DNA of 64,000 nt, taken from Minisyncoccota bacterium. GTDB lineage: Bacteria > Patescibacteriota > Minisyncoccia > UBA6257 > GWB1-50-10. Under the pieces are notes generated by a model. That model was not told where the DNA came from. It saw only the letters and a program-made list of their open reading frames with translations, and did not search any database. Made by a program: the position numbers and the translations under genes. Shown here one piece after another: positions 8,090 to 54,963 of this stretch. The first letter of the stretch is position 1, and the number at the start of each line of letters is the position of its first letter. The stretch covers positions 2,873 through 66,872 of the forward strand of contig JAGVBB010000007.1 of assembly GCA_020059915.1 (NCBI GenBank), in the 5' to 3' direction.

Positions 8090-8463
8090 AACTACCTCTG
8101 CTATTTAATTATTAAATGTAAATATATTATATCACTAAATATTGAAAAAGTCAAAACTAAAACGGGGCTCGATTATGAGACCTTTTTCGTTTTATGTATA
8201 TTAATTATTTGTAGAAGTTTTGAGTGTAAAAATAAAAATAAGAAAGAACAACGTCAAAACCCAAATATATACTAACGAAAAAGCTCTCACATCGAACTCC
8301 CCGTTTCAGAAAGTGCATACACTAGTCCAATTTTCGTGCGCCTCTACACCGCCTCAACCCGCGCCATACCGGCCGGATACGTAACGAGCAATTTGGAAGT
8401 AACCCGCTTTGAAAACCAAACCACTATAACTTTATTATTTTATAAAACAGAGGTCAATAGTTT

Positions 8464-19718: not shown

Positions 19719-19995
19719 TGGTAAACAAATTATAATTTTTTAAATAACAAAAAACCACCCCAACGTATGAGGTAGTTTTTTTTCAAGTACTTTCTTGGTC
19801 GTCCCACCGAACATACTAAACCAATTAGACATTTAATATATTCGTAGCCGAGACATATTTGAGGTTTATCGGCTAACACCTCTGGCAGTATGCATCATTC
19901 CCTCTGCGTTGATTTCCTCGATTACTCGAATGATCGCGTGCAGCGAACTGTTATACAAATCCGGTTTTTTAAACTTAAAAGTTTATACGACTTAA

Positions 19996-21490
<1,495 letters not shown>

Positions 21491-21819
21491 AGTAAGTGTA
21501 AAAAAAGGTCTTCGTGCATGACTGCAGATGCATTCTGCCTTCATGCACGTATTGCTTCGTTCTTCTTTTCTCTAATAGGGACAACCAAGAAAATACTCGA
21601 TTGTATTTGATCCAAAAAAATACTTGTTTTTGTTTCCGTTCAATTTATTGATTCGCACTTATTAATAAGTGGATATTCATCTTGTAAGGAACGCTACAAA
21701 AGGCATATAAAAACCGCACCTTTATGCAGCTTTCCCATTATAGGAAAGTTCAAGAATAAGTCAATACCTATATAGCAAACAACTCATGACCCACAACCAA
21801 CAACAAACCTATATAATTC

Positions 21820-21996
21820 CTACATCACTAACAGCCCCATCGCTTTATACATAACCATCGCAGGCCATACAATTGCCTTTAAAACACCAAGCACTCCCAT
21901 CCAAAACGTATCAGATTGTTGGATGTAATAGACTGCCGCTCCCACGACTGCAAGCCCGTAGGCCCCTCCGCACATTCCTCCATTTTTATTACACAT
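21820..21996 (-). CDS. possible 58-aa hydrophobic mini-protein (MCNKNGGMCGGAYGLAVVGAAVYYI...)
   Basis: complete ORF below the 60-aa track cutoff, GC-rich relative to surroundings, ATG 8 nt after TATAAT; located in the 16S upstream region so could equally be non-coding. Confidence 0.25.
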   Translation of the reverse strand: MCNKNGGMCGGAYGLAVVGAAVYYIQQSDTFWMGVLGVLKAIVWPAMVMYKAMGLLVM

Positions 21997-22015: not shown

Positions 22016-22044
22016 TTGACACAAAAAAATCCTGGACATACAAT
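22016..22044 (+). promoter_or_regulatory. near-consensus sigma70-type promoter TTGACA-N17-TACAAT reading toward rpmE
   Basis: TTGACA at 22016..22021, 17-nt spacer, TACAAT at 22039..22044. Confidence 0.6.
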
Positions 22045-22138
22045 TCTACTACTGTTCTTTATAGAAGTTTGCAGTCACCATAAGCTAGGATGATATTAAA
22101 GAGTTACGGCCTTTCTCTTCGAAGTATAATAGATAGGA

Positions 22139-22268
22139 AAGGAGGAGAACTGCCTAATGGTTTGCTCCCTATAGTGGTGGCATCATGATGCAAATGAAAT
22201 ATGTAGTGGACCGGCGGGAAGATATCTTTATACAAGTCCCAATCGACGTATTCGATTGGGCTTTTTTG
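22139..22268 (+). promoter_or_regulatory. rpmE leader: AAAGGAGGAG, 5-codon mini-ORF (ATG GTT TGC TCC CTA TAG, 22157..22174) and intrinsic terminator (CCCAATCGA CGTAT TCGATTGGG + T6, 22238..22267)
   Basis: elements read directly from sequence downstream of the promoter and 115 nt upstream of rpmE start; no plus-strand gene upstream to which the terminator could belong. Confidence 0.5.
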
Positions 22269-22383
22269 TTGCAAATTGTTTTTTTTGATCTTTCTATTTT
22301 TTTGTTATCGGTTGTAGGTTATATGTTGTCGGTTGTTCTACATTCTTGCTTTTTTTATGTTTTATTTGTACTATAACCAAGTT

Positions 22384-22674
22384 ATGAAAAAGGATATTCA
22401 TCCAACATATTATAAGGAGGCAAAAGTTCGTTGTGCATGTGGCAATGAATTTGTTGTTGGTTCAACCCGAGAAGAATTGGTAGTTGATATTTGTGCAAAA
22501 TGTCATCCATATTACACTGGAAAACAACAATTAGTAGATACCGCAGGACGCGTTGAACGTTTCCGCTCAAGGACAACCAAAGCAAAAGAGGTAGTAAAGA
22601 AAGAGAAGAAACCACGTGTTAAAAAACCAAAAGCAACTCCAACAAAGGTAACAAAAAAGAAAAAGGCAGAATAA
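22384..22674 (+). CDS. rpmE: 50S ribosomal protein L31 (zinc-ribbon type) with Lys-rich C-terminal tail
   Basis: [23 protein letters not shown]...[13 protein letters not shown]31 signature; about 35 aa KKxK-rich extension; start at internal Met of the 113-aa ORF. Confidence 0.9.
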
Positions 22675-25925: not shown

Positions 25926-25996
25926 CGGACTGTACAGGATTCGAACCCATATTACCACCTCTAAGGGTAGTGTCCTAACCATTAGACGAACAGTCC
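25926..25996 (-). tRNA. tRNA, Glu-like scaffold, anticodon uncertain (apparent 6-nt anticodon loop CTTAGA)
   Basis: reverse complement GGACTGT TC GTCT AATGGTTA GGAC A CTACC CTTAGA GGTGG TAAT ATGGG TTCGAAT CCTGT ACAGTCC G; clean cloverleaf except the anticodon loop is one nt short by eye. Confidence 0.6.
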
Positions 25997-26004
25997 AAAT
26001 GGTG

Positions 26005-26077
26005 TGGGGTGGGATGGATACGATCCACCAGCCTTCGCCTTGCAAGGGCGACGCTCTCCCAATTGAGCTACCACCCC
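26005..26077 (-). tRNA. tRNA-Ala (anticodon TGC)
   Basis: reverse complement GGGGTGG TA GCTC AATTGGGA GAGC G TCGCC CTTGCAA GGCGA ... CCACCCC A; normal 7-nt loop. Confidence 0.8.
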
Positions 26078-26164
26078 AACAATTTGTGCGGGCAACATAA
26101 TTACATAGAATACGTCCAACCAATACATATTCCACAAACATAATTATGAAGCCCGACTTTTTCG

Positions 26165-26236
26165 AGCAGGAGGAAGGACTCGAACCTCCGACCGACACCT
26201 GGCAAGGTGATCCTCTACCAACTGAGCTACTCCCGC
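26165..26236 (-). tRNA. tRNA-Gly (anticodon GCC), anticodon arm one nt shorter than canonical by eye
   Basis: reverse complement GCGGGAGTAGCTCAGTTGGTAGAGGATCACCTTGCCAGGTGTCGGTCGGAGGTTCGAGTCCTTCCTCCTGCT; closely parallels bacterial tRNA-Gly(GCC) but loop reads TTGCCA(G) rather than TTGCCAA. Confidence 0.65.
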
Positions 26237-26419
26237 AGTATTAAAAGAACTTAACGATTCTAAACAAGTGTAAAAATAATGTCAAATAAAAAGCCCCGCA
26301 GGAATGCGAGAGCTTTTGTGGAACCAGTTTATCCTCCTCACAAGGAAAACATGATTTCCCTTATATTTTAGCAAATTGAAAGTTCTTCGCAATACCCCCC
26401 TGTGGATTTCTTGTGTATG

Positions 26420-27821: not shown

Positions 27822-27920
27822 ATTATATTTATATCGTGCAATCTTGACATACAATAAAAAATTTATAGAAATAAACACCCCCATACGGTATACGTATGGG
27901 GGTGTTGTTAAAAGAGATTA

Positions 27921-28040
27921 TTATTTCTTCTTTTTCGCAACTTTTTTTGTTGCTTTTTTTGCAACTTTCTTTACTACCTTCTTTGCTGGTTTCTTTGCAA
28001 CTTTTTTTGTTGCTTTCTTTGCTACTTTTTTTACTGCCAT
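27921..28040 (-). CDS. 39-aa Ala/Lys-repeat basic peptide MAVKKVAKKATKKVAKKPAKKVVKKVAKKATKKVAKKKK (histone H1-like)
   Basis: complete ORF below the track cutoff; underlying DNA is a roughly 24-nt tandem repeat; ATG follows a TATAAA box; the plus-strand 146-aa ORF covering it is low complexity. Confidence 0.5.
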   Translation of the reverse strand: MAVKKVAKKATKKVAKKPAKKVVKKVAKKATKKVAKKKK

Positions 28041-54853: not shown

Positions 54854-54963
54854 TTGTAACTCCAAATTAAATTATTAATGATGATACAATTATAGCATAC
54901 AATATCAAAAAAGTCAATGTTTAACGATATATATCTAATAAATAAAAGGGCGCCCATTGGCGC

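Follow-up and report, generated by a model that had tools for sequence, protein, structure and literature searches.

The locus lies in a 64-kb stretch of DNA, the whole of the sequence analysed and hereafter called the window, in which rpmE, encoding ribosomal protein bL31, occupies positions 22384–22674 of the plus strand. The product matches Pfam PF01197 and carries the zinc-ribbon cysteines (CxC...CxxC). The left neighbours, a 58-aa membrane-like ORF (21820–21996) and then the 16S rRNA gene (19995–21488), are both on the minus strand. Between them and rpmE, the plus strand carries a sigma-70-type promoter (22016–22044), with the -35 element TTGACA at 22016–22021, a 17-nt spacer and the -10 element TACAAT at 22039–22044, which matches the consensus at 11 of 12 positions. 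An intrinsic terminator follows, consisting of a 9-bp hairpin (CCCAATCGA-CGTAT-TCGATTGGG, 22238–22260) and a T6 tract (22262–22267), the end of which is 116 nt from the rpmE ATG. An earlier note had pointed out these elements, together with a GGAGG motif (22141–22145) and a five-codon mini-ORF, ATG GTT TGC TCC CTA TAG (22157–22174, MVCSL), and had proposed a candidate attenuator or cis-regulatory leader of rpmE or, as a fallback, an independent small RNA of about 200 nt. All of these elements are present, and since the upstream neighbours are all on the minus strand, no plus-strand gene owns the terminator, as the note had argued.

Judged from this one sequence, the promoter, mini-ORF and terminator features are statistically unremarkable. 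Four sites with at most one mismatch to TTGACA-N17-TATAAT occur in the window against 0.98 expected, two terminator-like sites were found against 2.0 expected from shuffles, and the folding z-score of the single window sequence was only -1.46. The reality of these features rests on conservation among relatives. One of the other three near-consensus promoter sites in the window is located upstream of a tRNA cluster. Pfam searches with the genes at two other near-consensus promoters and with the small ORF upstream of the locus yielded no families.

rpmE appears to have a promoter of its own (22346–22383), with TTGCTT at 22346–22351, a 17-nt spacer and TACTAT at 22369–22374, followed by 9 nt to the ATG. 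A box of the form TTGCWT-N16/17-TAYTAT is found in every relative, ending 9–11 nt before the ATG. The position of the -10 element implies a leaderless or near-leaderless mRNA, and such a promoter fits the largely leaderless gene starts predicted for this genome: in 20 of 66 long ORFs, a TATAAT box with at least 5 of 6 matches ends 4–12 nt before the first start, compared with 7 and 3 in the control sets. Like those of the relatives L001 and L087, the 16S rRNA encoded in the window ends in ...GUGGAUUAAUUACACUU and lacks the CCUCC anti-Shine-Dalgarno (anti-SD) sequence, and GGAG/GAGG motifs are not enriched before genes (5 cases vs 3 in the control). The organism evidently relies on leaderless, SD-independent initiation, and a “strong SD” is accordingly without meaning here. 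We searched the literature on anti-SD loss or leaderless translation in bacteria of the Candidate Phyla Radiation (CPR) and found nothing relevant. In contrast to the protein genes of this genome, the promoter at 22016–22044 is followed by no ATG after its -10 box, and this absence of a start codon fits a non-coding transcript.

Homologues of the segment between this promoter and the terminator were found at the same place upstream of rpmE in a series of related loci (L081, L085/L090, L086, L087/L088, L089, L091–L094 and L109). Together with the window they comprise eight distinct sequences at nine or more loci, always upstream of and co-oriented with rpmE. While the identity to the window drops to approximately 65%, the distance from the -35 element to the hairpin is constant at 224–226 nt in the six sequences measured. 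TTGACA is kept in the homologues, with TTGATA in the L091–L094 copies, and a -10-like box is found at 17–18 nt in most of them, the spacing being off in L087. Seven of the eight sequences share the same terminator upper stem and loop (CCAAUCGACGUAUUCGAUUGG); the hairpin top has decayed in L091–L094. Conservation of the hairpin or mini-ORF, the check set by the earlier note, thus gives a split outcome: the hairpin hardly varies, whereas the mini-ORF is not conserved.

The loss of the mini-ORF takes several forms. Its AUG is ACG in L087, a 1-nt deletion shifts its frame in L086 and L091, and, apart from the window, L081 alone has the GGAGG. In the predicted fold described below, the mini-ORF spans J5, the 3′ strand of P1d, the 3′ strand of P1c and J7, and the GGAGG is formed by the end of the P2 3′ strand and the P3 5′ strand, so that the two are strands of helices and junctions and not translation signals. 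A leader-peptide attenuator, in which translation of MVCSL from the GGAGG would control formation of the terminator, was suggested by the order of GGAGG, ATG and stop before a terminator in the window alone. The comparative data already refute it and leave it next to no probability: its start and frame are not conserved, the nucleotides of the GGAGG and the ORF form part of covarying helices (P1c, P1d, P2 and P3) and of the junctions that connect these, the CCUCC needed to read an SD motif is missing from the 16S rRNA, the ORF ends 63 nt ahead of the hairpin, and there is no antiterminator. When transcripts truncated before the 3′ arm of the terminator were folded, the partner of the 5′ arm differed in every homologue, indicating that no antiterminator is conserved. 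The switch between alternative terminator and antiterminator folds that an attenuator of this kind would use was therefore not borne out, and the mini-ORF-based version of the earlier proposal is unsupported.

No other coding capacity was found. Nearly every frame of the approximately 200-nt stretches is interrupted by stops, none is open across the homologues, and the indels are not multiples of three. Four ORFs were considered and rejected because no frame is conserved and the indels break them: a 32-aa ORF (22090–22188), a 63-aa ORF (22185–22376), a 56-aa minus-strand ORF and an 80-aa gene call in L086. An apparent “conserved peptide”, PIDVFDWA, is nothing but the translated hairpin.

The segment from promoter through terminator is very probably one conserved, highly structured non-coding RNA of approximately 217 nt. 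Its 5′ end is predicted at approximately A22051, and the fold deduced from the alignments consists of a long stem (P1a–d), a three-way junction with P2 and P3, a pseudoknot and the terminator hairpin. The RNA would begin with an A/U-rich 5′ tail (22051–22067), the sequence of which is not conserved. The long, irregular basal stem of the P1 domain (22068–22194) was recognized by RNAalifold on raw MAFFT alignments and by pair counts. P1a (22068–22073 with 22189–22194) shows compensatory changes in four of six pairs; UUUGCA/UGCAAA in the window is replaced by UCUGUG/CACAGA in L086 and by UUUACA/UGUAAA in L109. The 8-bp P1b (22074–22081 with 22174–22181) has compensatory changes in three of eight pairs and is separated by a small internal loop from P1c (22086–22090 with 22167–22171), which has them in four of five. 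P1d (22097–22100 with 22161–22164) completes the stem. Between P1a and P1b, the 3′ side contains a conserved 7-nt bulge, AUCAUGA (22182–22188).

The P2 hairpin (22110–22142) is built from a pyrimidine-rich 5′ strand (22110–22118) and a purine-rich 3′ strand (22134–22142). Standard pairs occupy 86% of its alignment cells and double changes occur in four pairs; its register is partly ambiguous because the helix pairs a homopurine with a homopyrimidine strand. The P2 loop contains GUAUAA (22124–22129), or GYAUAA across the sequences. P3 (22143–22155) is a mini-hairpin of AGG and CCU around the loop AGAACUG; all three of its pairs covary (G-C to C-G), and since the helix is only 3 bp long, our confidence in it is moderate. 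A linker (22195–22227) with the conserved core CCGGCGGGAAGA at 22211–22222 follows the P1 domain and is closed by P5, a 3-bp helix (22203–22205 with 22223–22225) in which a U-A pair in the window corresponds to C-G in L081. The next segment, UUAUAC (22228–22233), is complementary to the P2 loop and would form the 3′ strand of a pseudoknot. The support for this pairing consists of perfect 6-bp complementarity in all eight sequences and one compensatory event, GCAUAA with UUAUGC, shared by L086 and L091.

The terminator is also the 3′ hairpin of the RNA (22234–22267), with a lower stem AAGU/GCUU, the top CCAAUCGA-CGUAU-UCGAUUGG and the U6 tract at 22262–22267. Its stem begins directly after the pseudoknot strand, indicating that the terminator is part of the fold. 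The lower stem covaries, with A-U replaced by G-C in four sequences. The combination of a covarying lower stem with an invariant top points to a sequence-specific role of this hairpin beyond termination.

The covariation evidence was assessed at two levels. RNAalifold on the unedited MAFFT alignments recovered the basal stems and the terminator, with compensatory pairs at 15 of 58 and 12 of 41. Since MAFFT misaligned the interior, a structure-guided alignment was built, with gaps written as N to preserve the columns. In this alignment of eight sequences, 95.7% of the paired cells were standard pairs, compared with 39–47% in register-shift controls, and compensatory double changes were seen in 24 of 56 pairs, values reached by none of 500 shuffles; the interior (P2, P3 and P5) was curated by hand, which biases the pair counts towards the model, and the clade is shallow. 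L109 provides a partial blind test, as it was found only after the covariance model (R1) had been built: its score was 137.9 bits, and with it P1a, P1b and P1c gained further double changes. The paired positions contain 36 G-U cells and 5 A-C cells, and this excess of G-U indicates that the plus strand is the RNA. A 23.8-bit match to the covariance model at 27872–27968 on the minus strand of the window was a mere terminator-like hairpin that skips 127 model positions.

As judged from the loci compared, the RNA is confined to one narrow lineage, a small group of Parcubacteria in which rpmE is 82–99% identical at the DNA level. The occurrence of diverged homologues at the same locus, down to approximately 65% identity, indicates that the RNA is ancestral to this clade. 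It has also been lost. Two Logan contigs, L081 and L082, have an identical small ORF; L081 retains the block at approximately 94% identity, while in L082 approximately 266 bp (window 22030–22295) are gone and rpmE is still 98–99% identical at the DNA level. In the closest species representative, Parcubacteria LiPW_41 (L001), whose L31 is 95% identical, everything between the small ORF and a brief conserved segment immediately preceding rpmE is absent. L110 is a third locus from which the RNA is gone, and in all three rpmE and its promoter are intact. From their sequences, L082, L001 and L110 are separate deletions of the ancestral RNA. The box upstream of rpmE is the sole candidate promoter left at these loci, from which rpmE is presumably expressed in the absence of the RNA. 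Three deletions with no change in rpmE indicate that the RNA is dispensable for rpmE.

Presence and absence among near-identical strains, such as the indel relative to L001 and L082, could also arise if the block were a functionless mobile or decaying insertion, either a MITE-like element or a gene remnant. The segment absent from L082 has a perfect 10-bp inverted A-run/T-run at its edges, and the L091–L094 copies, with their decayed terminator top and TTGATA -35 element, would suit such an origin. We nevertheless regard it as very improbable. The block occupies the same locus in sub-lineages that have diverged to approximately 65% identity with compensatory changes, it has neither terminal inverted repeats nor a target-site duplication, and a search of the window and of 588 kb of related loci revealed no second copy. 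Furthermore, the -35 element lies outside the deleted block, yet its spacing is kept. This evidence argues that the losses are deletions of an ancestral gene.

Wider searches were consistent with a narrow distribution. Where the small ORF has homologues in other surroundings (L083/L084, L095–L097 and L105–L108), the RNA is not present. Exact 21–23-mers from the RNA body had no match in viral or JGI metagenome contigs. The invariant hairpin 20-mer was found at three metagenome loci and at no viral loci, and a 17-mer was found at seven viral loci, none of which fits the covariance model. No Rfam 15 family matched the window or four homologues at gathering thresholds or at E ≤ 10, so that assignment to a known family failed, and neither ARAGORN, which found nothing, nor Rfam identified the RNA as a tRNA/tmRNA, SRP RNA, RNase P RNA or rRNA fragment. 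Mimicry of rRNA was not apparent either: in the sense direction, nothing beyond 7-mers is shared with 16S rRNA, and the one antisense 11-mer (E = 0.06) is not conserved in L086. By comparison with catalogued sequences and structures, the element represents a structured RNA family that is new, restricted to one lineage and without a catalogued relative.

We propose that 22016–22267 is a stand-alone, dispensable and lineage-specific small RNA gene of approximately 217 nt, a reading to which we assign a probability of about one half. The locus has its own promoter and its own intrinsic terminator, both conserved, and no coding capacity, as expected of a small RNA gene; with the separate rpmE promoter and the losses, the evidence favours the fallback of the earlier note, an independent small RNA of about 200 nt, over its primary proposal. 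Transcription would start at approximately A22051 and stop at the U-tract, freeing a discrete, stable RNA, in which the terminator hairpin could stack on the pseudoknot helix because the two helices abut with no base between them. rpmE would be transcribed separately from its own promoter as a leaderless mRNA. Where the transcript begins and ends, and that the rpmE promoter is used, are predictions from the sequence. The conserved unpaired blocks of the RNA (the UCAUGA bulge, the GCGGGAAGA core and the invariant hairpin top) suggest that it has a specific partner, for which a protein is the most plausible choice; given its fixed position beside rpmE, bL31 or the ribosome would be the candidate to consider first.

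Two observations sit less easily with independence. Every copy is on the same strand as and directly upstream of rpmE, as a cis-regulator would be, and in other phyla rpmE is known to control its own expression by means of leaders that are each specific to a lineage (PMC7247131, PMC7297116). However, all of the copies come from one narrow clade, so that the constant synteny may reflect inheritance and not function, which makes the synteny argument a weak one.

The strongest form of the cis-regulatory alternative is an L31-responsive ribosomal protein leader of a new structural class that acts by transcription attenuation. The RNA would then be the 5′ leader of an rpmE transcript begun at 22051; excess bL31 would bind the fold, possibly at the invariant terminator top, and favour termination at 22267, and when L31 is scarce, read-through would add rpmE mRNA. 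The position of the RNA upstream of rpmE at all nine loci, including L109, where the left flank is rearranged and the left neighbour is a different gene, is consistent with this possibility, as are the placement of the terminator between the fold and rpmE and the sequence-invariant hairpin top and conserved unpaired blocks, which would fit a protein-binding site. There are also precedents, since five unrelated L31 leader motifs are known, each limited to one phylum (PMC7247131), and E. coli rpmE is autoregulated (PMC7297116). Against it, a strong terminator and the conserved rpmE promoter lie between the fold and rpmE, rpmE has no SD in an organism without an anti-SD, and three relatives have lost the RNA with rpmE unchanged. 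With up to 13 bp plus U6, the terminator is a long one that gives the impression of acting constitutively, no antiterminator is conserved, no Rfam L31 leader model matches, and no similarity was found to 16S rRNA, the rRNA compared. The spacer to rpmE ranges from 56 to approximately 215 nt, with unrelated, repeat-rich content across relatives; in the window it includes a variable G/T-rich stretch (22298–22336) with two 18-nt direct repeats, which lies outside the RNA and is missing in L085, L087 and L089. The r-protein attenuator thus survives from the earlier note as a live but weaker rival, which has the position beside rpmE in its favour and the separate promoter, the losses and the missing antiterminator against it, and we hold it only tentatively. 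If it were true, the RNA would be a sixth and much larger structural class of L31 leader.

The leaderless rpmE mRNA would make classical 5′-UTR control unavailable, and regulation could then take another route. In this bacterium without an anti-SD, a separately promoted, pseudoknotted RNA just upstream of rpmE, representing a new regulatory class linked to bL31, may sense bL31 or a ribosome-related signal and set rpmE output by regulated termination, with read-through either adding rpmE transcripts or occluding the leaderless promoter. We consider this conceivable but doubtful.

A small-molecule or metal-ion riboswitch with the terminator as its expression platform could also account for the complex fold with its junction and pseudoknot, for the conservation of unpaired nucleotides and for the position of the terminator directly next to the pseudoknot strand. 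Zinc is one candidate ligand, given that L31 is a zinc-ribbon protein. However, there is no competing antiterminator, and the pseudoknot strand borders on the terminator but shares no bases with it, so that formation of the pseudoknot would not switch the terminator. The very narrow distribution, the single gene context, the repeated loss, the promoter of rpmE and the lack of any Rfam riboswitch match further argue against it, and we regard a riboswitch as improbable.

Comparison with known systems helps to place the small RNA gene that we propose. The five L31 leaders in Rfam, from Actinobacteria, Coriobacteria, Corynebacteriaceae, Firmicutes and Gammaproteobacteria, are single short hairpins in the rpmE 5′ UTR (Eckert and Weinberg 2020, PMC7247131), and an operator through which rpmE is autoregulated has been described in E. 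coli (Aseev et al. 2020, PMC7297116). Like these, the RNA described here is structured, covarying, lineage-restricted, and located upstream of and co-oriented with rpmE. Unlike the L31 leaders, it is approximately 217 nt long, contains a three-way junction and a pseudoknot, ends in a terminator of its own, is set apart from rpmE by a second promoter, and is matched by no leader model.

In the S10 leader of E. coli, L4 promotes attenuation at an intrinsic terminator hairpin with no classical antiterminator. If the RNA upstream of rpmE were an attenuator, its terminator hairpin could likewise be the recognition element itself and a competing antiterminator would not be needed; we know of no other type of mechanism that would fit the attenuator reading here. 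The S10 leader differs in having no internal promoter before the first gene, and the terminator at the rpmE locus looks strong alone.

The lifestyle of the RNA most resembles, by analogy, that of orphan structured RNAs such as the raiA motif, which are found upstream of one gene and yet are separate transcripts. The likeness lies in a complex fold of approximately 200 nt, an own promoter and terminator, and a recurrent translation-related neighbour. It does not extend to sequence or structure, since raiA is in Rfam and gave no hit, and the distribution of our RNA is far narrower. 6S RNA, a rod-like molecule whose 5′ and 3′ ends pair with each other and whose centre is a large two-sided bubble, is similar in size (approximately 200 nt), in its strong promoter and in its dispensability. 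In contrast, the 5′ tail of the RNA studied here is free, its fold includes a three-way junction and a pseudoknot, and it does not match RF00013. Taken together, the element shows the defining features of neither 6S RNA, nor a riboswitch, nor a leader-peptide attenuator, nor any described L31 motif.

To our knowledge, next to nothing has been learned so far about the non-coding RNAs of CPR bacteria or about how their genes are regulated. Our analysis adds a candidate CPR RNA that is multi-helix, pseudoknotted and supported by covariation, and that adjoins a ribosomal protein gene; the host organism has no anti-SD in its 16S rRNA and appears to express most of its genes from leaderless mRNAs. 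It also carries a caution, in that an apparent “SD + mini-ORF + terminator” arrangement may in fact consist of the strands of a structured RNA. Should the RNA bind bL31, it would illustrate how ribosomal protein feedback can operate without a 5′ UTR; otherwise, it would be a new orphan structured RNA. The recent natural deletions offer ready-made pairs of strains with and without the RNA.

The RNA gene and a 58-aa hydrophobic ORF (21820-21996, minus strand), referred to here as the small ORF, are arranged divergently. The small ORF has its own TATAAT box at positions 22010-22005, which ends 8 nt 5' of its ATG, and only 5 bp separate this -10 box from the -35 element of the RNA gene. A homology search identified 669 homologues at E <= 0.001, and those that were named came mostly from Patescibacteria/CPR MAGs; a Pfam search of the small ORF returned no match. 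In some relatives, the small ORF and the 16S promoter region are separated by an extra ORF of approximately 100 aa (MEKLSI...VIQ) and an accompanying terminator: at 2280-2700 in L001 (Parcubacteria LiPW_41), at 867-1169 in the related locus L085, and also in L090. The window does not contain this ORF.

The RNA is absent from the related loci L082 and L110. A perfect 10-bp inverted repeat, ACAAAAAAAT (22021-22030) and ATTTTTTTGT (22296-22305), is located at the two boundaries of the block that L082 lacks and may have favoured its loss. In L110 (positions 1-300), rpmE, whose L31 product is 87% identical, directly adjoins the region upstream of the 16S rRNA gene; this relative has neither the small ORF nor the RNA but retains the rpmE promoter box. 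G/T-rich direct repeats resembling GGTTGTAGGTTAT occupy positions 22298-22336, downstream of the RNA terminator and upstream of the rpmE promoter. Such repeats were also observed in varying copy number in the spacers of L086, L091, and L109, and they are kept in L082, which lacks the RNA; they are missing from L085, L087, and L089. In some relatives, the repeats are accompanied by CTCCCTCTCTTTCTCC blocks.

Besides the RNA promoter, only three near-consensus sites (at most one mismatch to TTGACA-N17-TATAAT) were detected in the window, all on the minus strand (26257-26285, 8126-8154, and 54889-54917). One of them is positioned upstream of a tRNA cluster (25926-26236); the other two precede ORFs, for neither of which the Pfam search found a family. 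The solitary 16S rRNA gene (19995-21488, minus strand) is preceded, approximately 250 nt upstream, by a TTGACT-16-TATAAT promoter (21737-21764, minus strand), and no 23S or 5S rRNA gene was found in the 64-kb window. The 16S rRNA of L087 is 1861 nt long, a length that points to an insertion of approximately 370 nt.

In three clade genomes (the window, L001, and L087), the 3' end of the 16S rRNA (19995-20040, minus strand, in the window) reads ...GUGGAUUAAUUACACUUAAG and lacks the CCUCC anti-Shine-Dalgarno motif. Across the whole window, with start codons crudely assigned, a TATAAT box (at least 5/6 matches) ended 4-12 nt 5' of the first start codon in 20 of 66 long ORFs, compared with 7 and 3 in the controls, and no enrichment of Shine-Dalgarno-like motifs was found before these ORFs (5 versus 3 in the control). 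Leaderless mRNAs appear to be the main mRNA type of this genome.
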